Notes under the pieces: model-generated
Told to the model about the DNA's origin: nothing
The model's input: the letters and a program-made list of their open reading frames with translations, nothing else
Database searches by the model: none
Position numbers and translations under genes: made by a program
Source: a virus
Lineage: Duplodnaviria > Caudoviricetes
Strand: one strand, 5' to 3'
DNA length: 57,310 nt
IMG/VR virus record: IMGVR_UViG_3300005805_000104
Span: 1 to 57,310 of that record
Part shown: piece after piece, positions 1-46,428 of the stretch
Layout: every line of letters begins with the position of its first letter
Position numbering within the stretch: position 1 is the stretch's first letter

Positions 1-997
1 CGATTTGTGCTTTGAACTCTGCGACTTGCGTTACAGTTTCTATGTCTATAACGTGAAAAGCAGAGTAGTCAGCGCCATCGCCGCGTGCTACGTCGGCCAC
101 TACCGCGTAATGCTTAACGGGATCAGGGTATTCCCAAATCCAATAAGCTTTGTCCATTCCTCGCCGTTCTACAGGCTCTGAGATCATGTTCATCTCGTAC
201 CATGTCATGACCTCTGGATCTATTACCGTAGCTCCTGATGTTGCGAAATCGCAATCACACTCTTGTGCTGCGTTGCGTACTCCAAGTTCTTTAGTTTGTT
301 GGTCCCTCCAAATTTGATCTCTTTCTGGATGGACGGTCCAAGGTAGTGATATGGGTAAGAAGTTGTTTTCCTTCTTTTGAGCTTTTGTATATGTCTTATG
401 AAACCAGTTACCTACGCCGTTTGGAGTAGATAACGCGATGCACCTACCACCGGTTGCAAGTGTTTGTTGAGCTGCGGTAAATATGTCATCGATTCTGTCT
501 ATGAATGCCGCTTCGTCCATTATTAGCAACGATACGGCTTCTGAACGTGTCGCGTCTCCTGCGCCTGATACGGCTTTTATTTGAGATCCGTTTACCAATC
601 TTAGACTGAGGCGGTTGTCTTCTGATGCACCTATTTTCAACCACGTGGGTAAGTTTTGATAAGCAAAACGAACCTTAGTCACCATATTTTTTGCTGTTGC
701 CTGTGTAGTCGCTACAACGAGTATGTTCTTATCTTTGTTAAACAACATCATCCACAGCGATATAGCGGACACAAGTGTCGATATACCTAATTGTCTAGAT
801 TTGTTTATGATTGTATAATCGTGGGCTTCTAATAGCTTCAGCGTTTTTTCCTGAAATGGATAGAGATCAAAGAGTTGTCTACCCCTGGTCGGGTGTTGGA
901 TCATGTAGTACTTGCGCATAAAGTACACAGGATCCGATGCGCACTTTACAAACTCGGCTTTTATTCTATCTCGTATCTGTTGGGTAGATTCGCTCAT
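1..997 (-). CDS. terL: Terminase large subunit (T4 gp17-like), truncated by the window edge
   Basis: Manual translation from the ATG at 997: MSESTQQIRDRIKAEFVKCASDPVYFMRKY...LYPFQ...KSRQLGIST (Walker A-like), LLIMDEAAF (Walker B), STPNG (coupling motif), QECDCDF, and a nuclease DVARGDGADYS. Confidence 0.95.
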   Translation of the reverse strand, partial: MSESTQQIRDRIKAEFVKCASDPVYFMRKYYMIQHPTRGRQLFDLYPFQEKTLKLLEAHDYTIINKSRQLGISTLVSAISLWMMLFNKDKNILVVATTQATAKNMVTKVRFAYQNLPTWLKIGASEDNRLSLRLVNGSQIKAVSGAGDATRSEAVSLLIMDEAAFIDRIDDIFTAAQQTLATGGRCIALSTPNGVGNWFHKTYTKAQKKENNFLPISLPWTVHPERDQIWRDQQTKELGVRNAAQECDCDFATSGATVIDPEVMTWYEMNMISEPVERRGMDKAYWIWEYPDPVKHYAVVADVARGDGADYSAFHVIDIETVTQVAEFKAQI

Positions 998-998
998 A

Positions 999-1717: not shown

Positions 1718-1748
1718 TGAAAGTCGGCGTTTTCTATAAATATGTAAA

Positions 1749-2216
1749 CTACGCAATCCAGGCCGGTTGTTTGGCCTTGGCGTACTTTAGCTTCTTCACT
1801 TCCAGTTTATCCTTGATATAGAATTTACGGTACGCAGTAATGGTATCTGGATTCTTAAACTCTTCGGGCATACACTGGGGAGGTGGTACAAAACCCTTGT
1901 CTTCCAATTTCGGTTCGTTAACGATAAGCCAATCAACAATGTCTTCAGTCTTGTGTCGCTTACCGTAGCGTTCGGTAAATTCAACCAATATGGCTTTTGC
2001 GTGTGTGGCCAGCCACCTGTAGTGTTGTATGGATTCTCTAGTCCACTTAGTAGACGGATGATTTACGTGAGCTTTCTTGTAGGGGGCTTCTGATCCGTTC
2101 ATCCAGTGAGCGGTGCTGAGCATCTGTGCTGACTCGATGCCCATTTTGAGTACGTGTTGATCGGTCAAGTCTTTGGCCGATTGAATGGGATCTTCGTGAA
2201 TGTAGAATATGTTCAT
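1749..2216 (-). CDS. denV: Pyrimidine dimer DNA glycosylase / endonuclease V family
   Basis: MNIFY...DQHVLKMGIESAQMLSTAH, H.NHP..KW.R, PPPQCMP, AYRKFY are typical of this family. Confidence 0.85.
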   Translation of the reverse strand: MNIFYIHEDPIQSAKDLTDQHVLKMGIESAQMLSTAHWMNGSEAPYKKAHVNHPSTKWTRESIQHYRWLATHAKAILVEFTERYGKRHKTEDIVDWLIVNEPKLEDKGFVPPPQCMPEEFKNPDTITAYRKFYIKDKLEVKKLKYAKAKQPAWIA

Positions 2217-2280
2217 AACTTTTTAGGAATATACATAATACATTCCTATCCGTAAAATTTTAGTTTTTACTAGAAACTAA

Positions 2281-4230
2281 TTACGCTAATTCTCCGAAAT
2301 CTATAATGCCGTCGTTTTCTACGGTGACTTCAGGTTCTATTCCTAAAGCCCCCAATAAACCATCTACGCCCTGTTTAATCAAATCTGTTGCTGCTTTAAG
2401 AGCGTTTGATATCCAATCAATCAACTGATTCCACTTCTGTTTTAACCAATTCCACGCTTTATTTATTACGGATATCGCATCGTCCCACAGACCTTCTTGC
2501 ATTAGCGTTTTTTTGTTTTCGCGCAATTTTTGTTCCTTTTGAACTACTTTTTCTTGTTCTTTGGCATAATCGTTCAATCCAATTCTTACTGTGGTGTAAA
2601 AACTGTATCCCAATTTTTCTTTACCTCCATAAGATCCTGTCTTAAAATTGACCGCGAACTTCAGTCTTCCTGAGAGATCTTCTATTCCTTTATCGGATGG
2701 TTTTTTTACAGGTTTAATATGACATTTTGTCGCAGCTAAATTTGTTGCTAATAGCCATTCGGCTCTTGAATTTCCATCTCCGCCTTTTCCTCCAAATTTT
2801 ACTGCCCCCGTAGCAGCCTCATATACAAATGCGCGTTGTAATTTTGGATTATTATCAAAAAGTTTCATCATTTTTTCAGAGTACGCTCTATGTACCTCTT
2901 CAACCTCTTCAATGTATTTTAGTACCTTTTTATTGTGAGCGCTCAATTCTTTTTTTGAAATTCCTGTCTCTTCTTCAGCTTTTTTTCTAGCTCTAGCGGC
3001 CGCTTCAGGGCCTTTACCTTTGCCTCCTAGACCGCCGATATCTTTAAGTTCACCAGTTTCTAAACCTTGATCTGTCCTTGATAAAGGATTTGCTACCATC
3101 ACAGGTTTTCCCTTTTTATTTAACACAGGATTTCCTTCAGGATCTAATTGCGGTTCTGCTTTTTTAACGAAGCCTGGAACTCCTTTTTCTTTTTTGCCCT
3201 TAGTAATGGCTTCTAATTTGTCTATTTCTTGTTGAGCCAACTCTTTTGCTTCTTCGTCTAAACGAGACAGTTTTAGTGCGGCTTTCCATGTCGCGTTTAA
3301 TTCTGCTGTTTCAGGACTCATCAGTTGAGCTGCGCCTTTTTTAACAGATACTCTTAGATCTTTTCCGTAAATATCTGTTTTTGGAACATCCGTTTCTTTT
3401 TTTGTCCAATCTTTCCACTCTACTGATGTGGGATGGTTATTTGCGTACTTTTCGATTGTTTTTTTACCACCAATACTGTTGTTTTCTACTTCTATTTTCA
3501 ATTGATCGTAAAGCTCTTTACCTAACTTTAGAGGAACTCCTTTTATTGTTGATTTTGTGTTTTCGTTCCACTTTTCTTTATTCAACACCATCGTTAGTAC
3601 ATGTGCGGCATAAACTTCAAAATCTGAGGCTTCCATGCTCTCTAAAGCATTTTTTTCCTTCTTTTCATTTAGCTGTAATATGCCTTCAAGCAGTTCTTTA
3701 ACCACTAATTGTTCGCTTAGGGCTTCTTCTCCGCCGCCTGTTGTGTCTTCACCGGCTACACCGCTTGTAAGATCATCTGCCTCAGCGGCTGAGGTTCCCG
3801 CATCAGTTGCTCCATCAGTTCCTTGCTCAGCTCCTTCCGGACCTTTTGTTTTCAACGGGGATCCAAATCTTAGTAATCTGGCTATGGCTTGCATGCAACG
3901 CTCTTTTTCTCCTATCGTCATTAAATAGTAGTCTTTACCCTGTATGGTAGCTTGATAGGCTTTTCCTAGAAATGTAAGAAAGAAGAACTGACCGTTGTGT
4001 AATAGCACCTTGAAAGTCGTAGGTTTGGGCGCTACGATGAATATGGCGTTAAGATACTGTTGAAAGGAGGGTGTCATGAGCTCAGTAAGCACCTCGTTTA
4101 ACGTTGTGTACTTACGTAATATGAATCCCATGGGATCCTTCTCAAAAGGACTCTTGGCTTGAAGGCCGGGGTTTTCTTTATCAGCCTCCTTTAATATCTC
4201 AGCCAATATTTTACTTTTTAGGCTTTGCAT
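2281..4230 (-). CDS. Hypothetical multi-segment protein, likely virion-internal
   Basis: 649 aa ORF with several (I/L)xE motifs: ILAEILKE, ALSE...LLEG...QLNE, LMQE. Confidence 0.6.
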   Translation of the reverse strand: MQSLKSKILAEILKEADKENPGLQAKSPFEKDPMGFILRKYTTLNEVLTELMTPSFQQYLNAIFIVAPKPTTFKVLLHNGQFFFLTFLGKAYQATIQGKDYYLMTIGEKERCMQAIARLLRFGSPLKTKGPEGAEQGTDGATDAGTSAAEADDLTSGVAGEDTTGGGEEALSEQLVVKELLEGILQLNEKKEKNALESMEASDFEVYAAHVLTMVLNKEKWNENTKSTIKGVPLKLGKELYDQLKIEVENNSIGGKKTIEKYANNHPTSVEWKDWTKKETDVPKTDIYGKDLRVSVKKGAAQLMSPETAELNATWKAALKLSRLDEEAKELAQQEIDKLEAITKGKKEKGVPGFVKKAEPQLDPEGNPVLNKKGKPVMVANPLSRTDQGLETGELKDIGGLGGKGKGPEAAARARKKAEEETGISKKELSAHNKKVLKYIEEVEEVHRAYSEKMMKLFDNNPKLQRAFVYEAATGAVKFGGKGGDGNSRAEWLLATNLAATKCHIKPVKKPSDKGIEDLSGRLKFAVNFKTGSYGGKEKLGYSFYTTVRIGLNDYAKEQEKVVQKEQKLRENKKTLMQEGLWDDAISVINKAWNWLKQKWNQLIDWISNALKAATDLIKQGVDGLLGALGIEPEVTVENDGIIDFGELA

Positions 4231-4702
4231 TTCTGAGTATGTGTTCTAATACGCTTTTATCCATTTCGGTGTCCCTTTCATCGGGCCACTGTGAATCTAC
4301 ATCTGACATATCTGAGAAGTTATCATCGTAGTTGTCCAGCGTGTCTGTGTACTCCTCAGCTGAGTCTTGCTCGTACTCGTGATAGTTCTTATTAGCATGA
4401 GATATGTAGTTCTCAGCGTTAGTTATGTGATCTTGGATCCACGCCGGTATGTCTTTTTCTTCTGATCCTAGTTTGTCCATCAACTGGCTAGCTGCGCTGA
4501 TAATGGATTTTAGGCTATTAGTGGCCATAGAAACCTCATGATCTTGACCTTCGTGATTCTCGTTCTTTTTTTGAAGAGCTTTGAAATCCGCGCCGGTGAT
4601 TTTGTCTTTCGGTGCGGCTTGTTTGGCGATGTCTTTTTGTTTATCGCTCAGTTCCTGTTCTTCTAATAACAGGCTTCTATAGTAATTGAGGCTTTTTTCC
4701 AT
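4211..4702 (-). CDS. Hypothetical phage protein
   Basis: 163 aa; LLLEEQE near the N-terminus; PAWIQDHIT segment; ATATTTAT motif upstream. Confidence 0.65.
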   Translation of the reverse strand: MEKSLNYYRSLLLEEQELSDKQKDIAKQAAPKDKITGADFKALQKKNENHEGQDHEVSMATNSLKSIISAASQLMDKLGSEEKDIPAWIQDHITNAENYISHANKNYHEYEQDSAEEYTDTLDNYDDNFSDMSDVDSQWPDERDTEMDKSVLEHILRNAKPKK

Positions 4703-4713
4703 GTCTATAAATA

Positions 4714-4872
4714 TCAGGATGCTTTATTGATTTCTTTCGCGGCCTTTTTGGCTTGTTTGAAGGCTTTTGACCCCTTTCTAGCGGGTTTAGCACCTCTAGC
4801 CTGTTTTGCTCTTATATTAGCCCACAATCCTTGTGATTCTTCGATTATGAGATGCTTAAGTACTTTGTCCAT
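4714..4872 (-). CDS. Small basic protein, 52 aa (not in ORF track)
   Basis: MDKVLKHLIIEESQGLWANIRAKQARGAKPARKGSKAFKQAKKAAKEINKAS*; fills the gap in the minus-strand operon. Confidence 0.65.
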   Translation of the reverse strand: MDKVLKHLIIEESQGLWANIRAKQARGAKPARKGSKAFKQAKKAAKEINKAS

Positions 4873-4877
4873 ATGTG

Positions 4878-5105
4878 TTATAGTTTATTTGAATATCGTT
4901 TCAATAAGAAATACAAGCCAAGAAAAAACAGTGCAACGCCATAAAAAATAAAATCCGTAATCCAATAGCTGCCCGTCAAGTCCATCACCGCTTTGAAAAG
5001 CGCGTCGAATCCAAGCGGATTGAAGAACATTCCCAACATTAAACATGTCGTCGCTATGTTCTGTATCAAGGTTTTTCTCCAGGTTTTTATTTGTTTTACT
5101 GCCAT
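4878..5105 (-). CDS. Small two-TM membrane protein (holin-like topology)
   Basis: Two hydrophobic segments and a basic C-terminus. Confidence 0.55.
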   Translation of the reverse strand: MAVKQIKTWRKTLIQNIATTCLMLGMFFNPLGFDALFKAVMDLTGSYWITDFIFYGVALFFLGLYFLLKRYSNKL

Positions 5106-5145
5106 CGTCCATATTTACGGGGTGAAATGCCTAATACGTTAACCT

Positions 5146-6165
5146 TTACCACTTTCTACATGACCAATATCGTGCTGTGGTACGATCTTTTGCTGTGTCG
5201 CAGCGGTGTCTTGCCCGGAAATTTTTTCTTCTTCCCGGATTGTTCTTCTTTATTTTTACGCCTTTCTGACCGAAGTTAACTTTTACAACATTTCCCTTTT
5301 TGTTCTTAACATATACTTTGAATTTTTTTACATCGCCGGCCATGGGTTTTCCAAGGGGTACTTTACGCCCTTGATACTCTGCTTCTGCGATAAGATTAGC
5401 GTGCGCAACAATGTATTCAGCTAAACACTGTGGACAATATTCCCCTTCGTGGAGTTGGTCGATGTTTTCTTTCGCAAGGTTGAGATTTGCGTTGCTTTTT
5501 TCTTTGCCTTGATAGTTTTGCAAATAGTCCTTAAAATCCGCTATCGTGTTTGATATAGCTTTCTTTACGTAATTTATGATGCTTCCTATCTTACTCAACC
5601 AACTTACTACTTCTCCGAATCCTGCAGTTGCGGCAGAGATCAGTGATTTAACTGCTTCATCTGATATAAATTGACCGAATAGCTGCGCTATTTCTTTTGG
5701 GTTTTTATTTGCAAATTTTTCGTATATGAAAGTTGCGGCAGTGGCGATGCCAATGGCAGCAAACATTCTAACTGTGTCGTTCGAGATTTCTAATATCTTT
5801 TTTATGACGTCGGAAAGTTTTTTTCCGGTAGCAGCCATTTTTTCTTCGATCCACTTTCCAAGATCTGGACGATTACCTGGTTTTCCAAACGTTCTATGTA
5901 AAACGTTGTTAGCAAATTTATCTGATATTCCACTCTTTATTACCCCGTACATGACGGCCGCGAAATCCTTGAGCTCATCTATCTTGATAACAACCTTATC
6001 TTTAAGATCTCCAGCAGCTTTAGCTACTGAATCTAGAATGCTTTCCGTTAGTAATTGTTGTTCGAGTATTTCTCGGAGTATACGGCGATCGTACGCAAAT
6101 TTGGGGTCAAGAGGATAATTCAATCCCAATGCATCCAACTTGCGTAAATTGTATATATGTGACAT
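5146..6165 (-). CDS. Hypothetical protein with basic C-terminal domain
   Basis: C-terminal AEYQGRKVPLGKP...RRKNFRARHRCD...ARYWSCRKW domain; ILREILE/LLTE and LIAE motifs. Confidence 0.7.
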   Translation of the reverse strand: MSHIYNLRKLDALGLNYPLDPKFAYDRRILREILEQQLLTESILDSVAKAAGDLKDKVVIKIDELKDFAAVMYGVIKSGISDKFANNVLHRTFGKPGNRPDLGKWIEEKMAATGKKLSDVIKKILEISNDTVRMFAAIGIATAATFIYEKFANKNPKEIAQLFGQFISDEAVKSLISAATAGFGEVVSWLSKIGSIINYVKKAISNTIADFKDYLQNYQGKEKSNANLNLAKENIDQLHEGEYCPQCLAEYIVAHANLIAEAEYQGRKVPLGKPMAGDVKKFKVYVKNKKGNVVKVNFGQKGVKIKKNNPGRRKNFRARHRCDTAKDRTTARYWSCRKW

Positions 6166-6167
6166 CG

Positions 6168-6536
6168 TTAATGCAAGAACTTAAGTTTGTACTTAGTCGA
6201 CTCTATCAAGGACACTATCTCGTCTATCTGATTTTGTATGTATGAGTCTTGCGGTATTTGAAATCTTGCTGTCTCTACGAATTTGCATAAAGCCTCGAAA
6301 TAAGTTTCAGGATTTCCATCCTCTTTTATAGAAGCCGCCATGTTGTATCCTCTTAGTATTCCGTACCGACCTTGATAAGATTCAACTACTCCGTCTATAA
6401 GAGGTATAATGCCTTCATAGTACGCTTGTAAAGCTGTGTGGCCGGCGAATGACTCAGTCTGCAAGTGGTATATGTGCGCTTGATTTCGGCTCTGCATTAG
6501 AGTGCCTATGAAAACGCCCAATTGATTTTGGTTCAT
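6168..6536 (-). CDS. Ferritin/Dps-like four-helix protein (DUF5856-like)
   Basis: AHIYHLQT...H.AL..YYE....ID..VESYQG pattern of Dps-like metal ligands. Confidence 0.7.
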   Translation of the reverse strand: MNQNQLGVFIGTLMQSRNQAHIYHLQTESFAGHTALQAYYEGIIPLIDGVVESYQGRYGILRGYNMAASIKEDGNPETYFEALCKFVETARFQIPQDSYIQNQIDEIVSLIESTKYKLKFLH

Positions 6537-7042
6537 TTGGCCTTTTCTTTTGTTTTTTCCTCGGCTTTTTTAGACTTTTCTACCTTTTCGAGTTTTGTCA
6601 TGTAATCGTCGATTTTGGTAGCTAATTGTGCAACTTTATCTTTGTGTTGAGAGGCGTTTTTAGGATCCTCTTTTGCCATATTGATGTGTTCTTTTCTCTG
6701 TTTTTCTAACTTGTCTATGGCCTTTTTTATTTTATCTACTACGTCTCCCTTTTTTTCTTCTAACATGGACTCGTATTTCATACACTCCGTACAGAGGCCT
6801 TCAGCAACTTGTAGAGCCATTTCCTTGTCTGGATACACTCCGTGAACTTGATCGGGAACTATTTGAGATCCCTGTAAACCAACTAGAGGATCCAGTTGAT
6901 TAACTAAGCCCTTATTTGCGCATCCTTCGCCTGGTTTTTTAACCAGGAACAATTGTGATAGCGCGCCGTCCATATTTTCTTTTTTGGCAGCATGCTTTTC
7001 CAGATGCGATTCCAATAGTCTAAGTTGTTTCTTTGTGAGCAT
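6533..7042 (-). CDS. Hypothetical protein with coiled-coil C-terminus
   Basis: 169 aa ORF; LRLLES at the N-terminus; ATATTTAT motif upstream. Confidence 0.6.
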   Translation of the reverse strand: MLTKKQLRLLESHLEKHAAKKENMDGALSQLFLVKKPGEGCANKGLVNQLDPLVGLQGSQIVPDQVHGVYPDKEMALQVAEGLCTECMKYESMLEEKKGDVVDKIKKAIDKLEKQRKEHINMAKEDPKNASQHKDKVAQLATKIDDYMTKLEKVEKSKKAEEKTKEKAK

Positions 7043-7064
7043 AAGAATAATTTTTTATAAATAT

Positions 7065-7634
7065 CTACTCCCGGTCGCTTTTTATCTTTTCTAATTGCTG
7101 TTTTACGCTATCGTAGACAGCTTTTTTATTTCCTCCTACCCAAGATTCAATGTGACCGTCTTCGGTTACGTGACTTTCGTTGGCTTTGTACCACGCTTCT
7201 AGGGCTACTTCTATATCATCCAAGTAAGTTGCATGATTATTTTTTGCGGCTTGTAAATCGTAATTTTGCCACTCTCCGCGCTTTTTTATTTCTGCTTCTG
7301 TTTCTATTACGCAATCAAAACATGTTCTGTGTATAGCGTACATCTTCTTATTCAAATCGTTAATCTTCATGTGTTTTTTACACTTTGGACAATTCAACGG
7401 AAATTGTATTAGACTCTTTATTGTGTCTAGCTTAGTAATGTTTTGTTTGATTCCGCTCTTAATTGTCCAAGTTTTTCCATTTTCTTCCCACACATCTCCC
7501 TCTTTTCTATCTAGCTTCTGCTTATCCCATCCTGATTGTACTCTGGTCTTTTCTCCAAAATTTCCAGATATGAGATTTCTCATTCTCTGCACTTCTCTTT
7601 TACTAAATTCTCGTACTAAATTGCTCTCTTTCAT
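7065..7634 (-). CDS. Zn-finger-containing hypothetical protein
   Basis: CPKC...H..CFDC; KEGDVWEENGKTWTIK segment. Confidence 0.6.
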   Translation of the reverse strand: MKESNLVREFSKREVQRMRNLISGNFGEKTRVQSGWDKQKLDRKEGDVWEENGKTWTIKSGIKQNITKLDTIKSLIQFPLNCPKCKKHMKINDLNKKMYAIHRTCFDCVIETEAEIKKRGEWQNYDLQAAKNNHATYLDDIEVALEAWYKANESHVTEDGHIESWVGGNKKAVYDSVKQQLEKIKSDRE

Positions 7635-8557
7635 GACTTTTTCGGTTCTTCTTTGCTATCTAAATCTAATTTATCTATTTGATAATGTGCTGGGTGTTCG
7701 TCTACATGCAGTATACCGACTCCTCCGCTTTTTTTCCACGGAATTATGTTATCGTTCCAATCATCTATTAGTACAGATTTTTCGACTTCTTCTGGACTTT
7801 TGTTTACCAGTATGGTGTGTTTCTCTCCAGTTTGTCTAAATATGATTGCCTTAGGGGCTGGTGTTAGGTGTAAATTGATCCACTCTAATTTTCCAGGTTT
7901 CGCGTCCTTGAAAGTAGAAGGGCTGGTCAATATTATTACACCGTGTTTTCCTATTTTTTCCCAAAGTCTTTTTCCAGCAGACATCCACGGCATTTCTGCC
8001 CAAAACTCACGACCAGCTTTATCTATTGCATTTTTAAGACCTGGATAACCGTGTTCATTTTCGTATGTTGCTGGATCTGTTCCATAGTAGTGTTCAAACT
8101 GGGCTACGAAATCGCACAGTACACCGTCCATATCGCAATATAGTTGGTATTTTGAAGTGTCCTCGGCCTCCAATAAATCCATCATTCTCATGGATTCATA
8201 TATTAGAGGATTTGTTTTACCGTATTTTCTTAGCAGCACTCCCGCTTTGCTATTGGCTTCGTTCTCGTAGTTAGATCCATCTGATCCATCTAATGTATCT
8301 GCTGGGCCCATGAGTTCTTTTTGTTGGTGGTGAACCAATTCATGTGCAAGCGTTCTAAGTATATCGGCCAAATTTCTGTTCTTGATGTATACTTCTATGT
8401 TCCCATCGTTTGGATAATACCCTCCAAAGCTAGTTTGCGATTTTACGAACTTATTATCGCTGTGCAAACGGATTTTAGGGGCGTTTTTTATCTGAAGTTC
8501 ATGGTAACAGTACTTCAGAAAGTCTTTTATTATAGGTATTCTTTCTTCTTCTTTCAT
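7631..8557 (-). CDS. Fusion of a zincin-like HExxH domain and a HAD 5'(3')-deoxyribonucleotidase-like domain
   Basis: RTLAHELVHHQQ...E.EAN; then CDMDGVLCDF, ILTSP, K..W, LIDD. Confidence 0.8.
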   Translation of the reverse strand: MKEEERIPIIKDFLKYCYHELQIKNAPKIRLHSDNKFVKSQTSFGGYYPNDGNIEVYIKNRNLADILRTLAHELVHHQQKELMGPADTLDGSDGSNYENEANSKAGVLLRKYGKTNPLIYESMRMMDLLEAEDTSKYQLYCDMDGVLCDFVAQFEHYYGTDPATYENEHGYPGLKNAIDKAGREFWAEMPWMSAGKRLWEKIGKHGVIILTSPSTFKDAKPGKLEWINLHLTPAPKAIIFRQTGEKHTILVNKSPEEVEKSVLIDDWNDNIIPWKKSGGVGILHVDEHPAHYQIDKLDLDSKEEPKKS

Positions 8558-8558
8558 G

Positions 8559-10286
8559 TTATTTGTTGAAAGATGATTCTAATCCGCGTGTTATGAACGA
8601 TCCAGTAATTTTATAAGGAACGCTAGAAACGCTCTTGTTATCAGGTATGACTACGCCTTCTTGAGTATTTAGTGGTCCTAGAGGAGAATCCATGGATTTC
8701 AATAATGCGTCTCCGAGTTTTATAGTGGCTAAATACATGAGATATGAATCTACGGCCACTTTATAATCTTTAGGATCTTGAACAAGGTCAGATACACTTT
8801 TACCTTCATTGATCCACATATACACCTGTTTACTAAGAGCGTCCACGGTTCTGCCGTCTTTGAGTTTTAGTTTTATGCCTTTAGTGTTTTTAGCTGAGGA
8901 TAGCCACTGAGCTAGTGATTTACTTTCCTTTTGCTTTTTGTCGATGTTAACAGTATATGTCTTAGAAAGTTCCGAGGTCATATCAGATTTCTTACTTAGT
9001 TTTGCAGGTATTACGTTGAATACATCAAAACCCCGTTTCTTAGCAGTTGGTTTTAGACCATCTACCAAATCTTGTAAATCTTTGAGATTATAAGAAACAG
9101 GTTCAGACGCTCTTCTGTTCGGCGTGACTTGATCTATCCTAAGCAGATTATGAATTACTATGAAATTGCCTTTGTATTGCTGTACGTTAGATTTACCCTC
9201 TACGTACTCTATATTCAATAAGATATTAGGATCATCTATAAGTCCCAATTTTTTTAACGGGCCTTTTATGGAAGATAGAGCTTCATTGAATATGCTAAGA
9301 ACTGTTCCCCCAATTTGTATCATACCATGACCTTTATCAAACCGCTTATTTAGATCCTTAGCGGTCACACCCTTAACGTCTAAAGGTTTATTAGAACCCC
9401 TATCTAATGCAAACTCTTTGCCTTTTCCAGAATCTATGAGCCTTATTGACGAATTTATGCCATCTATTTTTACTGGCACTTCTTTTCGTTGTAGATAATT
9501 TTCTGTCTCTTGAAATACTTTTATGAGATCTTTACCTGATTTTACAGCGGGTATATCGAATGGATGGGCCATGTGACCAGCTGCTCCGCCTTCGTTGAGT
9601 ATTTGTCTTATCGCTGTTCTAAATACTGCTCTGTTTTCTAGTATATCCGCGAATTCGCGAAGCCTTTTTCTACCAACTCGAACTCTCGACTTTTTTTTTG
9701 TTAGAATGTCGTAAATTTGAGTGATGATATTGCGAGGTATTCCTGGATAGTTGGTGGCGAACTTGTTTATATTGCCGGCCTTTATGTCTTTTCTTAATAC
9801 GCTAGCGCTTACTCCTGTACCATCTAATTGGTCTCTTCTACCTTTATACAGCAGTGGCTGAGTGTCCATAGATAGCATTACGGGTATAATGCCTCTAGGG
9901 GTCATCTTTTTATCTCTTACAGTAGGAACATTCTTGTGTTTATTCAAGTAACTAACGAACGCTTTTGATCTCTCAGCGTCTGATCCTTTTGAGCTTGCAC
10001 CCATGGCATATCTACCTGTAGCGTTTTTGTTCAAATTTAAGACAGTTTCAAATGCCGCTTCCATGGGATTATCTACTGGGGATCTCACTACTTGGACTTT
10101 TGGATGAGTAGGAAGCAGAGCCCAGACTTTTAGAGAATCTTGCATTGTGATACCATCTCTTTCAGATGGTCCTACGAGCACTATAACTTTTTCCACTGCG
10201 GGGTGGTTTGCGTATGCGTTGGCCAATTGTAAGTGTCCTGCGTGTGGGGGCTTAAATCCTCCAGGAAGTAATACAGTAGTCTTCAT
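8559..10286 (-). CDS. Fusion of a HIGH-family cytidylyltransferase-like domain and a ligase-superfamily nucleotidyltransferase-like domain
   Basis: PGGFKPPHAGH (HxGH) and SASVLR; C-terminal KIDG, NIEY, EGVVI, YKITG. Confidence 0.7.
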   Translation of the reverse strand: MKTTVLLPGGFKPPHAGHLQLANAYANHPAVEKVIVLVGPSERDGITMQDSLKVWALLPTHPKVQVVRSPVDNPMEAAFETVLNLNKNATGRYAMGASSKGSDAERSKAFVSYLNKHKNVPTVRDKKMTPRGIIPVMLSMDTQPLLYKGRRDQLDGTGVSASVLRKDIKAGNINKFATNYPGIPRNIITQIYDILTKKKSRVRVGRKRLREFADILENRAVFRTAIRQILNEGGAAGHMAHPFDIPAVKSGKDLIKVFQETENYLQRKEVPVKIDGINSSIRLIDSGKGKEFALDRGSNKPLDVKGVTAKDLNKRFDKGHGMIQIGGTVLSIFNEALSSIKGPLKKLGLIDDPNILLNIEYVEGKSNVQQYKGNFIVIHNLLRIDQVTPNRRASEPVSYNLKDLQDLVDGLKPTAKKRGFDVFNVIPAKLSKKSDMTSELSKTYTVNIDKKQKESKSLAQWLSSAKNTKGIKLKLKDGRTVDALSKQVYMWINEGKSVSDLVQDPKDYKVAVDSYLMYLATIKLGDALLKSMDSPLGPLNTQEGVVIPDNKSVSSVPYKITGSFITRGLESSFNK

Positions 10287-10298
10287 ACGTATAAATAT

Positions 10299-13200
10299 CT
10301 ACTGGTGCTTAACTAGCGATTTATCTTTTACTTTGTGTATGTCTATGTGGGAATCCACTACGTCCCTCATTGAATCTATGTGTGATATTATGACTAAAAA
10401 TTTGAATTGGGTCTTAAGATAGTCAAACAATAACGACATGGAACTCAAATTTGACTTGTCTAGAGTGCCAAAGCCCTCATCTATGGCTATGAAATTTGGC
10501 CTGGGAAGGGTTGATATATTGATGAGAGACGTCCTAATTGCTAGTGAGGATATGAATTTCTCCATTCCAGAAGTCAATTCAAGAGGCCAAAATCTGTCTT
10601 CGCTGTACGCTATATAGGCATTTACGTCCTTATCATCGGTTTCAAAGACCACTCTAAAATCAACTAGTTGAGACAATATGTTGTTGACCTCTTCTTCGAT
10701 CTGCGGTATAGTCACCGAGATGATGTCATGAGGAATTCCGTTTCTGTGAGTTGCATCAAGATAATATTGATAGTGTTCGTTATCCTTCTCCAAATCTTTT
10801 CTTTTCTGGATCTCTTTTTTTGTGTCATCTATGCTCTTTTCCAGTATTTTTATCTGGACTTGACAATCTGAAACGCCTGCGTTTGTCGCCCTTAGTTGTG
10901 TTTCCAGATCTGTTAAGGTCTTTTTTAGAAGCGCTATTTTTTCGTTAAGGTCTTGGTTATTTTTTATCGTAGAAAGCTGTTTTTCTCTCAGTTCTAGCTT
11001 GTCTTGTGCTTCTTTTAATTGCAGTTGATCCCTTAATTTTTTAGACTCGTTTCTTTCTAATTCTGCGTTTAGGCTAATCAGTTTGTTCTCTAGCTCTGCG
11101 ATTTGTTTACGAGTCTTGATGTACGCTAGACGCTCTACTTCTGCGTCTTCACACTCGGAAAGTTTCACTTCTATCTTAAGCTTATTTGTCTTAAGTATCT
11201 TCAACTTTTCTTCATCCTCTTGTATATCGTTCTTCGTTTTTATAGCGTCTTTAACAAACACGTTTTCCATACAAAACTTACAACTAGGGTCGTATTTAAG
11301 CTCTTTGAGCTTTTCCATCTTGTCGTTTTTGTGTTTCATGTGGCTCTCTAGCTGTTGTAATTCTAGATCAGCCGAGTGGAATTTATCCTTTAAGGCGTTG
11401 CACGCTTTTTCGTTTTCCTCGAGTTCTTTTTCGTCTATTTTAGCTATGGATTGCTTTAGTTTTTGCAAACTAGTGTCTGTCTCTTGAACAATTACACTGA
11501 CCTGTTGCATGTTCAACTCTATAGCTCTTATGCTATTTTTTAGGCTAACTATGTTTCTCTGAATGCTCTCTTCATCGACTATAGAATCATCGACTTTTTG
11601 CAGTTTAGTGGCTAAATCAAGCAATTTTTCGTTGTACTTCGCTTTGTCTTTTTCCTGTTTCTCTTTCGTTGCGGTGTTTGTTTTGAGAAGCTCTTGATAC
11701 GTTAACAGGTCTTCTCCGTATTGTTTTAGTTTAGACTCGTAATCTGTCTTTTGATAGTGCCTTAACAGCGCATTTGTATCTCTAGCGGTTTCATTGGCTA
11801 TTGTATACATCTCTTCGAATACGCCGATGTCCATGAACTGACTGAGAAGATCCTTGCGATCCTTCTGGTTCATGTCTATGAAGCCGGTGTTGTTACTTTG
11901 AGTGGATAACGTGGTCAGAATGAAATCCTCGTAGGTGCCAAGCAGGTTGCGTACGCTTGCGTTGGTGTCCGATCTGTCCTTACCGTTCAGCGATACTTTA
12001 TCGCCCTTCTCATCGTAGTAATAGAAATCGACTTCTACTCTAACATTTCCTGATTTCTGCCTTTTTGCCGTTCTTTTTATGACGTAGTCAAGCCCGTTAA
12101 GTTCGAAACTCAATTTGCAATTAAAAGTATCGCTATTAGAATTCATGACTTGATGACCTCTATTGGTCTTTGTGCACTTATCAAATATGCAATAGGTCAA
12201 TGAATCAAGTAACGTAGATTTTCCGCTAGCGTTCGGCGCAAATAGTCCGTAAATTCCTTTCATGTTAGTAAAATCTACTACGTTATCTTTACCGTAGCTA
12301 AACATGTCTTCGAACTCAAATCGTTTAGGTATCCACATAGAATTCCTAGGCACTTCGCTCTTCTTTAACGATTTATGCACCGTGTCGTTGATCTCTAGTA
12401 TCTTAGCAAGATCTTCATCTTTTATCTTGTGTTTCTGCTTTAGATACTTCGTTATGAGCTCGCGCTGTTGTTCAAGAGACCTAAAATCTAAACCTTTGGA
12501 TTCGTTAACGGATTTCTCTCTAATAGAGAATGTGTTTATGCGTTGGGTGGTTAACTCAACCACGTTTCTTTGTTTCCTTAGATCCTCTACTATCTCTCGG
12601 AGAACGGTTTGATCTGTGTTCCTGTATCTTACCCTGAGATATAGATTTTTCGGAAGTGTCTCGTCTATGGGCGTATAGTTTCCAGAATCTATGTCGACAG
12701 TGTAAAAAGCTGTATCATTCTCTATAGGCACAAATTCTGCGAGTCGGCTATTAACTTCCCAAAGTAAGTATCCATGATTGCGTTCTTCTCCGTGATTCTG
12801 TTGTATTAGAGAGCCGGGATACGCTATAGTTTTTTGAGGATTTAGGAATTGCGTCTTGTGAATGTCACCCAACAATACCATATCAAAGCCATTGAAGTTC
12901 TCGACTTTCATGCTCTCGTTTTCTATAACGAATCCCACCTCAGTAGAAGAATCATTGACTGGCCCATGATATAGAGCTATTCTAGTTTGAGAATCCTCTA
13001 GTGGAAAAGGATAGTTCTCTGCGGTATCAAACACAGACCAGTGATAAAAATCCACATTATTTAGTCTTAGTATGGCGGATTTTTCACAGTATTCCAACCT
13101 AGGATTTGCCATTGCATTTACTATGGGTGTCAATGCATCCATTCTGTGAGAATTGTTTAGATTGGCGTCATGGTTACCAGGAATCATGAGCACCGGCGCT

Positions 13201-14422: not shown

Positions 14423-14479
14423 AGTGAAAATAATGTAACAAAAATTTTCAAATCTCAAAAATTTTGTTATATTGTGTAA

Positions 14480-16926: not shown

Positions 16927-16935
16927 ATATTTATA
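16927..16935 (+). promoter_or_regulatory. Representative ATATTTAT(A/T) putative late promoter
   Basis: Recurs on the coding strand shortly before at least 14 start codons. Confidence 0.7.
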
Positions 16936-21176: not shown

Positions 21177-21208
21177 CGCGGATAGAATAATTAACTATAT
21201 TTATTAGT

Positions 21209-21628
21209 ATGAGCAAATTAGACGCCCTAAGAAGACTTATAAGAGAGGAAATACGATCAGCCATAAGGGAAGAACTACCTAGACTTCTCTCAGAAAACTC
21301 TGCGCCCCAAAAAAACGCTGATTACAAGAAAAAGTTGAGGGATCAAGTAAGTAAAAGCGTTACTGGTGGAATTCCAATGACTCTAAACACCGGTCCCATG
21401 CAACTACCAAAGTTTAGTGGCAACGATCCATTGTCTAAAATACTTAATGAAACTGCCATGAGCATGACTCCCAAAGATATGGGTGAGGAAGTAGAACCAG
21501 AAACCGGATCTGTAAACGAAATGCTATCTACGGCAAGAAAAAGCTCGAATTTAGAAGCCGTAGAAATAGACACAGTACCAGATTTCTCAGAAATCATGCA
21601 TAGATTGAAAGCTAAAGGTCAGATATAA
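21209..21628 (+). CDS. Hypothetical protein
   Basis: N-terminal LRRLIREEIRSAIREE; ATATTTAT upstream. Confidence 0.6.
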   Translation: MSKLDALRRLIREEIRSAIREELPRLLSENSAPQKNADYKKKLRDQVSKSVTGGIPMTLNTGPMQLPKFSGNDPLSKILNETAMSMTPKDMGEEVEPETGSVNEMLSTARKSSNLEAVEIDTVPDFSEIMHRLKAKGQI

Positions 21629-40994: not shown

Positions 40995-41933
40995 ATGAAT
41001 AAGGGTATTTTACTAGAAAAAATAGTCAGAAGAATCTTAGAAGCGGAAGAAGAATCTGCTCCCGGATCTAAGAAATCCAGTGATGCAGAGAACGATAGAC
41101 GAAGCCCCGCGGGAAGGATAAATGCGGCATTCAATAAACCACTTCCTGGTTTTGTGGCGGATCTAAAGACAATCATAGCGGATCCCAAGGTGCAAGCCGT
41201 ATTGAAAGCGGGTCAGACGGACGCAGCGGGCCCCAAGGACGAAGCTCTACCCTACGAGAGCACTAGCCTGCCGGTGTTGAACCTGAAACCCACGCAAAAC
41301 GAAATAGGTTTCGACCAGAGCATCAAGAACATTTTGACAGACCAGTACGGCAGCCTCAAGAGCATACTAGACGGAAACGCCGACGTTGGTGGCCCGATAG
41401 TTACTTACAATTCTCAGTACGTCATAGACGGCCACCACAGGTGGAGCCAAGTGTTCGCCGCGAATCCAAAAGCCAAGATGCAGGCTCTCAACATCAAGGG
41501 CAAACTCAAGCCGACGGAAATACTAAAACTTGTGCACGCTGCGGTAGCCATAAAGATGGGAGAGGTACCAGGAAATAATCCCAAGGGCATAAACATACTC
41601 AACGGCGTGACCGAAAATCAAGTGCTCGATTCAGTTAACGCCAACCTCTCCGAAGGGGCCAAAAAACTGTGGGCGGAGAACGGACAGAAGAGCAACGAGG
41701 ATATCGCCAAGTACATCAACGACAACCTGCAAAAATTGATCAAGAGCAACAAGCCCGTTCCAGGTGCACCTGGTAGGGTAGACATGCCGCAGACCGACGC
41801 GGACAAGGGTCCAGCTACCACAAAGTTGGACATACTTTCCAAGGGCGCCGTTAACTTCGATGCGCCGAAGGTCAAGGACGCAGAGGATTTGAAGGAACAA
41901 AGAGAAAGATTGATGAAAAGAGCGGGACTCTAA
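40995..41933 (+). CDS. ParB/Srx-like domain protein
   Basis: LKPTQ...PIVT....VIDGHHRW; N-terminal LLEKIVRRILEAEEE. Confidence 0.75.
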   Translation: MNKGILLEKIVRRILEAEEESAPGSKKSSDAENDRRSPAGRINAAFNKPLPGFVADLKTIIADPKVQAVLKAGQTDAAGPKDEALPYESTSLPVLNLKPTQNEIGFDQSIKNILTDQYGSLKSILDGNADVGGPIVTYNSQYVIDGHHRWSQVFAANPKAKMQALNIKGKLKPTEILKLVHAAVAIKMGEVPGNNPKGINILNGVTENQVLDSVNANLSEGAKKLWAENGQKSNEDIAKYINDNLQKLIKSNKPVPGAPGRVDMPQTDADKGPATTKLDILSKGAVNFDAPKVKDAEDLKEQRERLMKRAGL

Positions 41934-46056: not shown

Positions 46057-46428
46057 CTATATTCCACGTGACCGCATATAAGGCGCCCCGGCCTGTGTTA
46101 TTTGGTCCATAAGATATTCTGCCACTTCCTCGGCTTCAAATCCGTCGGCAGTTAGATCGTCGAATATCCTCTGCGCAGAAGCTCTTATGACCGATATATC
46201 CCTTTTGCTTATGAGACTCTCTAATCTACCGCCTAGTTGTTCCTCTCCGCTATTGTCACCGGCGTCAATGAATTTTTCGGAATTATCAACCGGGTTTGCT
46301 GGATCCCATTCGTCACCAAAGGTTTCTTTTAGAGATCCAATTGGTTTTAGATCTACGTATCCACCAATAGATTCTTTTAGAAGCGTTTTCTTTGATAGGA
46401 ATTTTACTATGTTGAAATTGTCTTTCAT
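46057..46428 (-). CDS. Hypothetical acidic protein
   Basis: LLKES / SLKE motifs; ATATTTAT upstream. Confidence 0.6.
   Translation of the reverse strand: MKDNFNIVKFLSKKTLLKESIGGYVDLKPIGSLKETFGDEWDPANPVDNSEKFIDAGDNSGEEQLGGRLESLISKRDISVIRASAQRIFDDLTADGFEAEEVAEYLMDQITQAGAPYMRSRGI

Follow-up and report, generated by a model that had tools for sequence, protein, structure and literature searches.

In phage T4, IPI, IPII and IPIII, which are internal proteins, bear at the N-terminus a capsid-targeting sequence (CTS), and the CTS and Alt propeptides are removed by the prohead protease gp21. The CTS is given as MKTYQEFIAE, and the T4 internal proteins are described as highly basic (PMC8442874). Residues 4 and 7 are assigned to targeting and residues 8 and 10 to processing, with gp21 cleaving after L/I-X-E (PMC9026906). 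The internal proteins of T-even phages are reported to be diverse, the CTS alone being conserved (PMC3012670). The N-termini of T4 gp22, gp67, gp68 and gp21 are short peptides ending in [LI]xE.

Polyvalent proteins of phages and conjugative elements were described by Iyer, Burroughs, Anand, de Souza and Aravind in 2017, who predicted that they are packaged, processed and delivered together with the DNA (PMC5512222). In phiKZ, 201phi2-1 and SPN3US, gp21-related proteases cut head and ejection proteins after S/A-x-E; the sections of PMC9026906 on these giant phages describe no shared short portable leader, whereas the lineage studied here has one.

The window, meaning the whole 57,310-nucleotide stretch of DNA analysed, is one piece of the genome of an uncultured myophage of distant T4 type ("far-T4"). 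The genes at 2281-10286 are a conserved cassette just upstream of the terminase gene and in the same direction. The original prediction had placed this block beside the terminase, which is confirmed (2-997, same strand):

2..997, minus strand: terminase large subunit, N-terminal part (Pfam Terminase_6N, E=7.8e-13; phrog_2, E=1.5e-40).

The window TerL is 62% identical to that of Flavobacterium phage immuto; immuto and Microcystis phage Mel-JY01 are cultured relatives. Since the record breaks off within the terminase gene, at the left end, the window lacks protease and head genes. The comparative set was composed of 79 related viral loci and two annotated phage loci (81 in total), with 843 unique gene products; the relatives' loci reach 10 kb to each side of a single gene. 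Past the terminase, the relatives have genes for portal, prohead protease, scaffold and capsid. A Peptidase_S77 (the T4-type prohead protease) is found just past the terminase in all four relatives' records searched. In immuto, the S77 protease is annotated downstream of the terminase, as are scaffold and gp23-type capsid genes, and the scaffold N-terminus is MSNKDLLKQAIAE. The presumed capsid-protein maturation site in the relatives has Val at P3 (L-V-V-E or I-V-S-E), and therefore the specificity of the lineage protease is an assumption. A literature search found no virion proteome or N-terminal data for the lineage.

The cassette features up to position 7634 are as follows:

2281..4230, minus strand: 649-aa protein, with a leader at residues 1-15 (DNA 4186-4230), a short spacer and a conserved module at about residues 27-138, then an acidic Gly/Thr/Glu-rich stretch, a helix and a lineage-specific C-terminal half.
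3664-3726, minus strand: that helix, EALSEQLVVKELLEGILQLNE, internal and leader-like (residues 169-189).
4211..4702, minus strand: 163-aa acidic protein, leader MEKSLNYYRSLLLEE (DNA 4658-4702).
4714..4872, minus strand: 52-aa protein, leader MDKVLKHLIIEE (DNA 4837-4872), then a very basic GLWANI module (phrog_11180, E=6e-7).
4878..5105, minus strand: 75-aa hydrophobic (membrane-like) protein without leader.
5146..6165, minus strand: 339-aa protein (phrog_7595, E=1.2e-12, on residues 261-339).
6043-6087, minus strand: leader-like RRILREILEQQLLTE of the 339-aa protein (residues 27-41).
5383-5385, minus strand: joint ..LIAE/AEYQG of the 339-aa protein, putative cut after residue 261.
5149-5382, minus strand: basic DUF5754-type module of the 339-aa protein (residues 262-339, pI 11.0).
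6168..6536, minus strand: DUF5856 (Dps/ferritin-like) protein of 122 aa without leader (Pfam DUF5856, E=8.4e-20; phrog_858, E=5e-23).
6533..7042, minus strand: 169-aa protein, leader MLTKKQLRLLE (DNA 7010-7042).
7065..7634, minus strand: 189-aa zinc-ribbon protein without leader, conserved beside the HExxH gene.

The 649-aa protein has no match in Pfam or PHROG. Its leader form, ILKxLLxE, is kept in 18 distinct N-termini among the homologues listed (22 loci matched; nine full-length homologues in the alignment). In immuto, the first module of the homologue closes one gene, and the next gene begins at that joint. Homologues of the 163-aa protein begin with MKLKD[IL]LKE or MKTSTKLKLALLKE. Past their leaders, the 163-aa protein has a pI of 4.6 and the 52-aa protein a pI of 11.3. 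The closest two relatives (L003 and L045) carry the 163-aa part fused behind the 52-aa module in a single ORF, with the DUF5754 module separate. The 75-aa protein is 76% identical to ORFs of the same two relatives, and an overlapping frame (4885-5112) is less conserved (64-66%). In the 339-aa protein, RRILREILEQQLLTE is followed by a middle part of 220 residues in which [LI]xE is frequent (7 sites vs 2.5 expected), a CPQC zinc-ribbon-like piece, the joint and the DUF5754-type module. The 169-aa leader is common only to the closest two relatives, and other homologues have a different N-terminal module, MPAVSKKQQ. The 189-aa protein has homologues in 71 loci and in immuto.

Leader-like starts are also found outside the block:

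21209..21628, plus strand: 139-aa protein, start MSKLDALRRLIREE.
40995..41933, plus strand: 312-aa protein, start MNKGILLEKIVRRILEAEEE.
46057..46428, minus strand: 123-aa protein, SKKTLLKE at residues 12-19.

The 139-aa protein sits in the baseplate module, which makes a head-cargo role doubtful. A promoter-like motif, ATATTTAT[AT], precedes cassette genes (4 nt upstream of the 163-aa and 575-aa genes, 14 nt upstream of the 169-aa gene), the genes for the 139-aa, 312-aa and 123-aa proteins (4, 21 and 18 nt upstream) and also baseplate and tail-fibre genes. In the relatives it stands before terminase, portal and head-completion genes. Late expression cannot be read from this motif, since it also precedes the small genes at 48045 and 50259, whose timing is not assigned.

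The original prediction held that many genes of the block start with an amphipathic segment ending in (I/L)-x-E, and that the motif recurs at domain junctions. Its cassette strings are all present in minus-strand ORFs: the starts ILAEILKE (2281-4230), LLLEE (4211-4702), LIIEE (4714-4872) and LLES (6533-7042), and the joints ILNE/GGAAGH, LIYES..DLLE/AED, LIAE/AEYQG and QLNE. LIREE (21209), ILEAEEE (40995) and LLKES (46057) were confirmed outside the block. ILREILE..LLTE (5146-6165) is present, but at residues 27-41 and not at the extreme start, and LMQE/GLW does not fit the motif because its P3 is Met. The "many genes" amount to five of the ten in the block; no N-terminal leader was found in the 75-aa, DUF5856, 189-aa, 308-aa and 575-aa products.

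Within the window, the bare motif is weak evidence. Set against shuffles of each protein, [LI]xE with its Glu in the first 30 residues occurs in 4 of 10 block genes (2.5 expected, p=0.23) and in 23 of the 59 other genes (14.9 expected, p=0.014). The block is no richer in the motif than the remaining window. By sites, the block has 7 vs 2.9 expected (p=0.03). Tightening the motif to hydrophobic-[LI]-x-E within residues 1-20 leaves 3 of 10 block genes (0.49 expected, p=0.01) and 7 of 59 others (3.5 expected, p=0.06; block vs others, Fisher p=0.15). Folded domains showed no significant avoidance of [LI]xE. When a position matrix of the relatives' leader was run over the 17,204 window positions, 7 of the 20 best matches fell within residues 1-12 of a protein, where about one is expected, and three of these seven are block genes. 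SKKTLLKE (46057..46428) is the top match (rank 1 of 17,204), and the 52-aa protein ranks sixth. The window's leaders have diverged from the relatives' consensus, scoring 4-6.5 bits vs 11.6 for the best match.

The relatives provide stronger N-terminal enrichment than the window alone. Their leader consensus is M-I-K-L-x-D-L-L-K-E. The pattern ^M-x(1-4)-hydrophobic-x-x-hydrophobic-[LI]-x-E opens 72 of these loci's 843 unique products, and shuffling the first 30 residues yields 4.15 +/- 1.8 (maximum 10 in 200 shuffles). At internal Met sites, 39 of 4,819 match (0.8%). The 72 products fall into about 20 families when sorted by their mature parts. Leaders of one genome differ in synonymous codons, which indicates that the peptide is conserved and not a DNA motif. 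The terminase of some relatives also fits the pattern (7 sequences), so amphipathic N-terminal helices do yield false positives. Comparison across the loci supports a real, portable, N-terminus-specific leader peptide in this phage lineage.

The two enzyme fusions of the cassette carry the element internally:

7631..8557, minus strand: 308-aa fusion (phrog_2643, E=2.7e-24; phrog_87 'metallo-protease', E=1e-4).
8198-8557, minus strand: HExxH zincin-like domain of the 308-aa protein (residues 1-120).
8159-8206, minus strand: disordered joint LIYE/SMRMMDLLE/AED of the 308-aa protein (residues 118-133).
Residues ~134-303 of the 308-aa protein, minus strand: 5'(3')-deoxyribonucleotidase-type HAD domain (Foldseek: human deoxyribonucleotidases, about E=1e-4).
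8559..10286, minus strand: 575-aa fusion of an NMN/NaMN-adenylyltransferase-like domain and an RNA-ligase/capping-enzyme-like nucleotidyltransferase.
9693-10286, minus strand: NMN/NaMN-adenylyltransferase-like domain (residues 1-198; Foldseek NadM/NadD at 2e-4 to 2e-3).
9591-9671, minus strand: free amphipathic helix RKRLRE/FADILE/NRAVFRTAIRQILNE of the 575-aa protein (residues 206-232).
8562-9590, minus strand: ligase-like domain (residues 233-575), starting GGAAGHMAHPFD, with lysine motif KIDG.

In the AlphaFold models, both joints are low-confidence flexible linkers between well-folded domains. In the 308-aa protein the pLDDT drops under 50 over residues 121-132, and in the 575-aa protein (pTM 0.56) it does so over residues 199-237. 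The 308-aa linker holds two of that protein's three [LI]xE sites. The 575-aa linker holds three of its protein's four (0.65 expected, p=0.005). All 14 sequences of the 308-aa family share I119, Y120 and E121, and E232 and G233 through D244 are invariant in the 27 sequences of the 575-aa family. By Foldseek, the ligase-like domain matches T. brucei REL1 (prob 0.91) and T4 Rnl1 (prob 0.66). This cytidylyltransferase-ligase fusion had been called odd, but its full-length architecture is widely conserved (828 homologues at E<=0.001; among the best 120, most have 560-575 aa).

The modules proved to be reshuffled among the relatives in stand-alone and fused forms, and to start after aliphatic-x-Glu, as predicted; the motif precedes the ligase-like, DUF5754 and NT5C modules regardless of the upstream partner. 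At the ligase-like joint, 114 homologues have Glu (108) or Cys (6) at P1, Leu (93), Ile (18) or Val (3) at P3 and ten different residues at P2. Of 45 distinct contexts upstream of this module in the loci, 43 end in x-E, and three of these are stand-alone proteins with a MIKL-type leader start. [LIV]xE precedes the DUF5754 module in 31 of 31 distinct contexts (P1 Glu in 31, P3 Leu/Ile in 30, P1' Ala in 30), and some proteins of 94-97 aa consist of this module with only the leader before it. For the GLW module, [LIV]xE lies 3-7 residues upstream in 5 of 5 contexts, and for NT5C, [LI]xE lies 4-7 residues upstream in all six contexts; the stand-alone NT5C enzyme of immuto starts MKKVMGNLADLLLEE. 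Of 39 relatives' ORFs with the HExxH domain, 32 have it by itself, six have it fused to NT5C and one has it fused to another domain. A conserved L-x-E ahead of a module could be part of the module's own fold, and the joint counts are not independent of one another, since homologues inherit the joint.

The lineage leader resembles the T4 CTS in its length of about 10 residues, its hydrophobic positions 4, 7 and 8 with Glu at 10, and its aliphatic-x-Glu end, after which Ala, Gly or Ser is frequent. As with the T4 internal proteins, it is found on unrelated, partly very basic proteins, and in the relatives the protease (S77) is T4-type, with a scaffold and a capsid protein of gp23 type also present. 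Unlike the CTS, it is MIKLxDLLKE-type in the relatives and more diverged in the window, is carried by many more families (about 20, enzymes included) and also lies internally between folded domains; the genes that bear it are grouped in a cassette located upstream of the terminase. Like gp22, gp67 and gp68 of T4, cassette proteins have N-termini ending in [LI]xE within 6-10 residues, with acidic stretches next. The leader and acidic spacer of the 649-aa family and the site-rich middle part of the 339-aa protein are reminiscent of T4 core proteins, which are cut at L/I-x-E. No sequence homology was detected between gp22, gp67 or gp68 and the cassette proteins, and the T4 core genes lie between the portal and protease genes, unlike the cassette.

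Compared with polyvalent proteins as presented in PMC5512222, the cassette likewise combines unrelated enzymatic or nucleic-acid-binding domains in one chain, near virion genes and with an HExxH zincin-like neighbour, which is only a candidate member of the MPTase family treated there. Its fusions are small (2-3 modules vs as many as 15), fusion to MuF or the portal was not seen in it, and its joints differ in having a CTS-like helix and an L/I-x-E signature of serine-protease type. The giant phages, as portrayed in PMC9026906, trim many head-internal proteins after the Glu of a three-residue motif with a gp21-related protease; the same is predicted here, with Leu/Ile instead of Ser/Ala at P3.

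The favoured reading, given a probability of about 0.5, is that T4-style capsid-targeting and cleavage tags mark prohead-core or internal proteins and have been retained within the enzyme fusions as joints. Alternatively, the L-L-x-E helix may be merely structural, an N-terminal cap or inter-domain linker at seams of gene fusion and fission. The proteins would then be neither cut nor packaged, and would act as cytoplasmic NAD/nucleotide-metabolism and RNA-repair enzymes and small nucleic-acid-binding proteins. This is possible, though on the unlikely side. It suits the NMNAT-ligase, full-length in most of its best 120 homologues as for a working two-domain enzyme, along with the untagged N-termini of the fusions, the terminase N-termini that fit the leader pattern, the weak window statistics and the presence of the motif in folded domains. 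It does not lead us to expect one N-terminal peptide shared by about 20 unrelated families and 20-fold commoner than in shuffles, fixed P3 and P1 with a free P2, an element unpacked from both domains in the models, or agreement with the 4-7-8-10 spacing of the CTS.

It is quite improbable that the window pattern is a by-product of composition (proteins rich in Leu, Ile, Glu and Lys with helical N-termini) and nothing specific to the block. The bare motif in 4/10 block vs 23/59 other genes, the Fisher p=0.15 and the misfit of LMQE speak for it; the relatives' leader counts and conserved P3 and P1 contradict it, as do the N-terminal matrix matches (7/20 vs ~1) and the clustering of sites in the two modelled linkers. 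Very improbable is processing of the joints by the cassette's own HExxH domain (308-aa residues 1-120) in place of the prohead protease. This domain lies directly behind the ligase-like gene in 40 loci, has invariant H72, E73, H76 and a downstream Glu (E98), and owes to phrog_87 its 'metallo-protease' match; zincin-like peptidases are predicted in PMC5512222 to process multidomain phage proteins. Against this, the domain matches no Pfam peptidase family (best DUF6782, E=0.096) and has no Foldseek match of its own, the whole 308-aa model giving HAD matches only. L/I-x-E followed by Ala/Gly is the documented signature of gp21-type serine proteases, and the leader pattern mirrors the N-termini of T4 core proteins. 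We know of no zincin with an L/I-x-E preference.

Under the tag reading, the short amphipathic helix ending in aliphatic-aliphatic-x-Glu that opens several cassette proteins would be the lineage's counterpart of the T4 CTS. It would bind the scaffolding core, and the protein would be enclosed in the prohead. A gp21-type serine protease would then cleave after the Glu, releasing small, very basic GLW and DUF5754 modules, akin to T4 internal proteins, as well as acidic core-like proteins. In the NMNAT-ligase and the HExxH-nucleotidase, the exposed linker would serve as internal tag and cut site, and the halves would be separated within the head. We infer such core binding and cleavage, as well as packaging in the virion and injection. 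The absence of an N-terminal tag from the 575-aa and 308-aa proteins counts against this reading, the T4 CTS being N-terminal, and so does the usual cytoplasmic site of action of NMNAT, RNA-ligase-like and nucleotidase enzymes. If the joints are cut, neighbouring genes would be free to fuse or split, and the relatives show such a pattern.

The cassette starts and domain joints resemble the tags with which T4 loads proteins into the head and marks where they are cut, and by this resemblance the phage may ship ready-made proteins along with its DNA.

The record is a complete IMG/VR entry of 57,310 bases, is estimated by CheckV to be ~35% complete, and ends inside the terminase gene. All genes from 2 to 14458 are on the minus strand. 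In order of transcription, they are a primase, a fused Mre11-Rad50-type nuclease, the ten genes of the cassette, a DenV-like gene, two small genes, and the N-terminal part of a T4-type large terminase that runs off the record. The main features of the window are as follows.

2-997 (minus strand): T4-type large terminase, N-terminal part
2281-10286 (minus strand): ten-gene cassette, encoding proteins of 649, 163, 52, 75 and 339 aa, a DUF5856 protein (122 aa), and proteins of 169, 189, 308 and 575 aa
4878-5112 (minus strand): two overlapping 75-aa frames, both open and both conserved in the relatives' loci L003 and L045
10299-13457 (minus strand): Mre11/SbcD-like nuclease and Rad50/SbcC-like ATPase in a single 1052-aa ORF
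14.7-42 kb (plus strand): baseplate and fibre genes
31351-38439 (plus strand): four consecutive proteins (593, 1034, 317 and 403 aa) with a common phrog_15511-matching repeat
52000-57310 (right end): G+C of 0.48-0.51 vs 0.36-0.43 elsewhere, with many small minus-strand ORFs without family matches

At 4878-5112, the hydrophobic frame (4878-5105) was taken as the gene because it is the better conserved of the two (76% vs 64-66%). T4 encodes its Mre11/Rad50 equivalents separately, by genes 47 and 46; the fusion found here is also kept in loci L022 and L045. One of the four repeat proteins also has a weak Hoc-like match, and the four are probably fibre or decoration paralogues.

Among named phages, the closest by terminase are Flavobacterium phage vB_FspM_immuto (62% identity) and Microcystis phage Mel-JY01 (57%); Rhodothermus phage RM378 and the T4-like cyanophages are more distant. 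Past the terminase, immuto and G001, a 183-kb complete relative, encode the portal and then small core-like genes, followed further along by a Peptidase_S77 prohead protease, an acidic scaffold and a gp23-type capsid protein. The cassette gene order is identical in relatives. A blastn search of the block against the phage collection gave no match. The lineage is large, with >800 homologues of one cassette protein and contigs of 170-190 kb; one contig of 177 kb encodes a protein identical to the 575-aa product.

The original prediction held that proteins of this block begin with an amphipathic segment ending in (I/L)-x-E, that the same element lies between fused enzymes, and that both are cut by the prohead protease. 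Every peptide string it quoted is present in the window, and one of its examples, the LMQE joint, does not fit (I/L)-x-E. The predicted enrichment at N-termini stood in part. The bare [LI]xE motif, with its Glu within the first 30 residues, occurs in 4 of 10 block genes vs 2.5 expected (p=0.23) and in 23 of 59 other genes vs 14.9 expected, which does not set the block apart. With the stricter hydrophobic-[LI]-x-E form in the first 20 residues, the block is enriched (3 of 10 vs 0.49 expected, p=0.01), but not significantly so relative to the rest of the window (Fisher p=0.15). Thus, the bare motif says little within the window alone. Four of the ten cassette proteins (649, 163, 52 and 169 aa) have a leader, a short amphipathic helix ending in L/I-x-E, within the first 15 residues. 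A fifth (339 aa) has a leader-like element at residues 27-41, and five of the ten products are without any leader.

The leader is clearer in relatives. ORFs were called in 79 viral loci around homologues of the 575-aa protein and in two annotated phage loci, and were compared with the proteins of the window. The pattern M-x(1-4)-hydrophobic-x-x-hydrophobic-[LI]-x-E starts 72 of the 843 unique gene products in these 81 loci, vs 4.15 +/- 1.8 when the first 30 residues are shuffled; internal Met sites match at 0.8%. The consensus is M-I-K-L-x-D-L-L-K-E. In immuto, leader-bearing products include the small proteins gp072, gp076, gp077 and gp080-084 as well as the NT5C, gp087. Within a single genome, leader coding sequences diverge at synonymous positions from gene to gene; the conserved entity is hence the peptide. 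By their mature parts, the 72 products form 20 families, and the tag is hence portable between unrelated proteins, with the caution that one of the 20 is the terminase, which starts MSQSLKDIIREEY in L043, L059 and five further loci and represents a false-positive class: N-terminal amphipathic helices can fit the pattern by accident. In the 649-aa family, all 18 distinct homologue N-termini listed carry the leader I-L-K-x-L-L-x-E, followed by an acidic spacer of variable length (10-45 residues).

A matrix built from 28 distinct leader 8-mers of the relatives was scanned over 17,204 positions of the window's proteins. The scores were modest, and 7 of the 20 best matches fell within the first 12 residues vs ~1 expected; therefore, the leaders of the window are real but diverged members. 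Among the seven are the cassette proteins of 52, 649 and 163 aa, and the best match of all is the product of the gene at 46057. A likeness by eye of this product to immuto gp069, a small gene beside the protease, was dropped because BLASTP gave no alignment.

A second leader type, M-K-x-E-L-I-x-E-x-x-R-L-Q-K-L-A-G-I-L-K-E, is found in loci L059, L061, L069, L077 and L002 (8656-9120) and is absent from the window. Its QKLAGI core is also the extreme C-terminus of scaffold proteins (ending WQKLAGIIK or WQKIAGIK) in L002 (22607-23848) and L086 (9030-10310). A cargo tag that copies the scaffold end would be a direct hint to the loading mechanism.

The capsid-targeting sequence (CTS) of T4 has been described for a few small internal proteins of T-even phages. 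In the T4 record, gp22, gp67, gp68 and gp21 (the prohead protease) each begin with a peptide of 4-9 residues that ends in [LI]xE, and in gp67 an acidic run follows. Likewise, MSNKDLLKQAIAE opens the immuto scaffold and MAKELLIE the G001 protease. The CTS is MKTYQEFIAE, and T4 internal proteins are highly basic (PMC8442874). T-even internal proteins are diverse, and the CTS alone is conserved (PMC3012670). A review (PMC9026906) assigns targeting mainly to residues 4 and 7 and processing to residues 8 and 10, gives the gp21 motif as L/I-X-E, first seen at a Glu-Ala bond, and describes T4 Alt as trimmed at both ends; with Asp at CTS position 10, processing in T4 is lost and targeting is retained. 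Its authors propose that the CTS may have evolved as a means of loading different proteins. The 4-7-8-10 spacing also holds for the lineage leader. Peptidase_S77 has no match in the window's record, a 57-kb fragment ending in the terminase gene, and control genomes gave none either; it is present in four of four relatives searched and is annotated in immuto. A search of the literature found no virion proteome paper on immuto or Mel-JY01.

The 575-aa protein carries the element as a joint between fused modules. An AlphaFold2 model (27-sequence alignment, mean pLDDT 85.7) bears out the domain boundary expected there: two confident domains flank segment 199-237, where pLDDT is below 50 and a free helix lies at 209-231. 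Three of the four [LI]xE sites of the protein are in this linker vs 0.65 expected (p=0.005). The N-domain is an HxGH nucleotidyltransferase of the NMNAT/NaMNAT/PPAT kind, with the Rossmann fold and motifs of that class. Its HxGH motif is PPHAGH at residues 13-18, and S160 and R165 of an ISxxxxR-type motif are at least 90% conserved. Foldseek finds NadM and NadD (NMN/NaMN adenylyltransferases) at 2e-4 to 2e-3, a profile search against the PDB finds PPAT (E=0.005), and Pfam CTP_transf_like is below threshold (E=0.013). The C-domain, which begins GGAAGHMAHPFD, is RNA-ligase-like. K273-I-D-G, a match to the KxDG lysine motif I, is invariant, and the remaining nucleotidyltransferase motifs were assigned by eye. 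It has no sequence match in Pfam, PHROG or PDB, and its Foldseek matches are weak (REL1, E=5.6e-3, probability 0.91; T4 Rnl1, 4.9e-3, probability 0.66; capping enzyme, 7e-3).

Joint residues were tallied in the 114 homologues with the module-start anchor among the best 120 of >800; the counts for this and the other modules are of sequences, not independent events. P1, the last residue before the presumed cut, is Glu in 108 of them and Cys in the other 6. At P3, Leu predominates (93), followed by Ile (18) and Val (3), and ten different residues occupy P2. Across the loci, x-Glu ends 43 of the 45 distinct contexts upstream of the ligase-like module. These contexts comprise at least ten unrelated sequences, with adenylyltransferase-like N-domains of two kinds among them; in three phages, the module directly follows a bare MIKL-type leader. 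Some homologues (P0039, P0096, P0113 and P0114, with a remnant in P0026; alignment A1, columns ~480-740) have an in-frame insertion of 60 to about 240 residues exactly at the L-x-E|GGAAGH joint. It is flanked by a partial GGAAGH copy before and ILLLC after, and part of it matches a ROS/MucR-type zinc finger and DUF7487. The ends of the insertion rule out a canonical intein, and it looks like a mobile, homing-endonuclease-like element that lands at the joint.

The 308-aa protein also conforms to the predicted boundary (14 sequences, mean pLDDT 84.3), with confident domains at 1-120 and 133-303 and a disordered joint at 121-132. The first is an HExxH domain that ends in I-Y-E, invariant in 14 of 14. 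It has no Pfam family, and Foldseek with the whole 308-aa model yielded no fold for it, as the HAD half dominates. In 32 of 39 relatives' ORFs it is a separate protein of 128-140 aa (nucleotidase-fused in six, joined to another domain in one), and a leader-like tail closes the stand-alone forms. The second domain is an NT5C-type HAD 5'(3')-deoxyribonucleotidase, with the DxDG-type motif CDMDGVL at residues 141-147, phrog_2643 at E=2.7e-24, and Foldseek matches to the human mitochondrial and cytosolic 5'(3')-deoxyribonucleotidases at about 1e-4; Pfam NT5C is just under its cut-off (21.5 vs 24.8 bits). A PDB profile search with the HExxH-NT5C alignment gave only noise, and Pfam searches with single domains at E<=1 gave nothing above threshold. 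The stand-alone NT5C of immuto begins MKKVMGNLADLLLEE, at the point where the fusion in the window has MRMMDLLEAE.

A basic DUF5754-type module follows the same rule. [LIV]-x-Glu lies directly upstream in 31 of 31 contexts, the first residue is Ala in 30 of 31, and the module occurs alone behind a bare leader in 94-97-aa proteins. The two closest relatives hold it apart from the rest of the 339-aa protein, and in them the 52-aa and 163-aa genes of the window are one ORF. Both the DUF5754 module and the 52-aa product after its leader have a pI of ~11. As anticipated, ligase-like, DUF5754, HExxH and NT5C modules thus occur both separate and fused in relatives.

A word shared with structural genes precedes several of these genes. 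On the coding strand, ATATTTAT[AT] occupies short gaps between genes and precedes 15 start codons by 4-33 nt; the window has 30 TATTTAT words in all, of which these are 15, and 11 of the 30 are inside genes.

Promoter-like words upstream of start codons (coding strand, window coordinates)
1736-1742
4707-4713
7057-7063
10291-10297
14663-14669
16928-16934
21198-21204
29605-29611
36241-36247
39415-39421
40967-40973
46447-46453
47431-47437
48263-48269
50458-50464

The word precedes cassette or neighbouring genes (8559-10286, 6533-7042, 4211-4702 and 1385-1717), structural genes (16948, 21209, 29627, 36259 and 39433), leader-bearing genes (40995 and 46057), an endolysin-like gene and three small genes. 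In relatives, it is found ahead of the terminase, portal and head-completion genes. By its placement, the word may reflect co-expression of the cassette with structural genes. If it is a -10 element, the copies only 4 nt from ATG would imply leaderless or near-leaderless mRNAs. The T4 late promoter TATAAATA was rejected: it has 11 matches vs 5.4 expected, but on the non-coding strand relative to the genes. The upstream word is its reverse complement, yet is oriented with the genes.

We put the probability at roughly 50% that the cassette encodes T4-style tagged prohead proteins and that, in the enzyme fusions, the linkers represent internally placed copies of this tag with its cut site. The P3/P1 pattern of the joints is the L/I-X-E motif of T4 gp21, and a fixed P3 and P1 with a free P2 would be expected of an extended peptide in a protease cleft. 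The main rival, possible at a lower probability, is a helix of purely structural role that remains where cytoplasmic enzymes became fused. The triplet before each module could belong to the module's own fold, and avoidance of [LI]xE inside folded domains, expected of protease-exposed cargo, is not significant for any domain; set against these are the unrelated contexts that share the triplet and the bare leaders at N-termini. A pure composition effect would suit the bare-motif counts of the window and is improbable given the shuffled N-termini of the relatives.

Processing could instead be carried out by the cassette's own HExxH domain, as PMC5512222 predicts for polyvalent proteins. The cassette shares with these proteins unrelated modules in one polypeptide near virion genes (multi-module products of 575, 308, 339 and 649 aa, with the terminase adjacent). 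Of the zincin-like MPTase domain or MuF/portal fusion of that class, the window has an HExxH domain without a Pfam family match, and no MuF or portal fusion is seen. We regard processing by the HExxH domain as highly improbable. That the enzymes are in fact cleaved into separate parts, kept in the head and injected is less likely than the tagged-prohead reading itself.

It is conceivable, though rather unlikely, that in this large, mostly uncultured T4-type branch the prohead is an evolvable delivery container for phage-made enzymes. On that view, a single short peptide, cleavable and serving as an address, would allow any gene product to be loaded, including whole enzymes such as the NMN-adenylyltransferase-like domain, the RNA-ligase-like domain and the deoxyribonucleotidase. 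With address and cut site in one element, genes could fuse or split freely without loss of function. The enzymes so delivered would be active within seconds of the start of infection, before phage gene expression, and one may speculate that they restore NAD+ or repair cleaved tRNA when host abortive-infection defences fire. No description of such leaders in uncultured T4-like phages was found in full-text literature searches, and the tagged-prohead reading is directly testable because cultured relatives (immuto and Mel-JY01) exist. If true, it would alter the sequence-based prediction of virion "cargo", explain the frequent gene fusion and fission beside the head module, point to pre-made enzymes delivered with the DNA, and offer tags and linkers of natural origin with which proteins could be loaded into T4-type capsids. 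A whole environmental lineage would then apply the CTS principle to dozens of protein families and to enzyme fusions.
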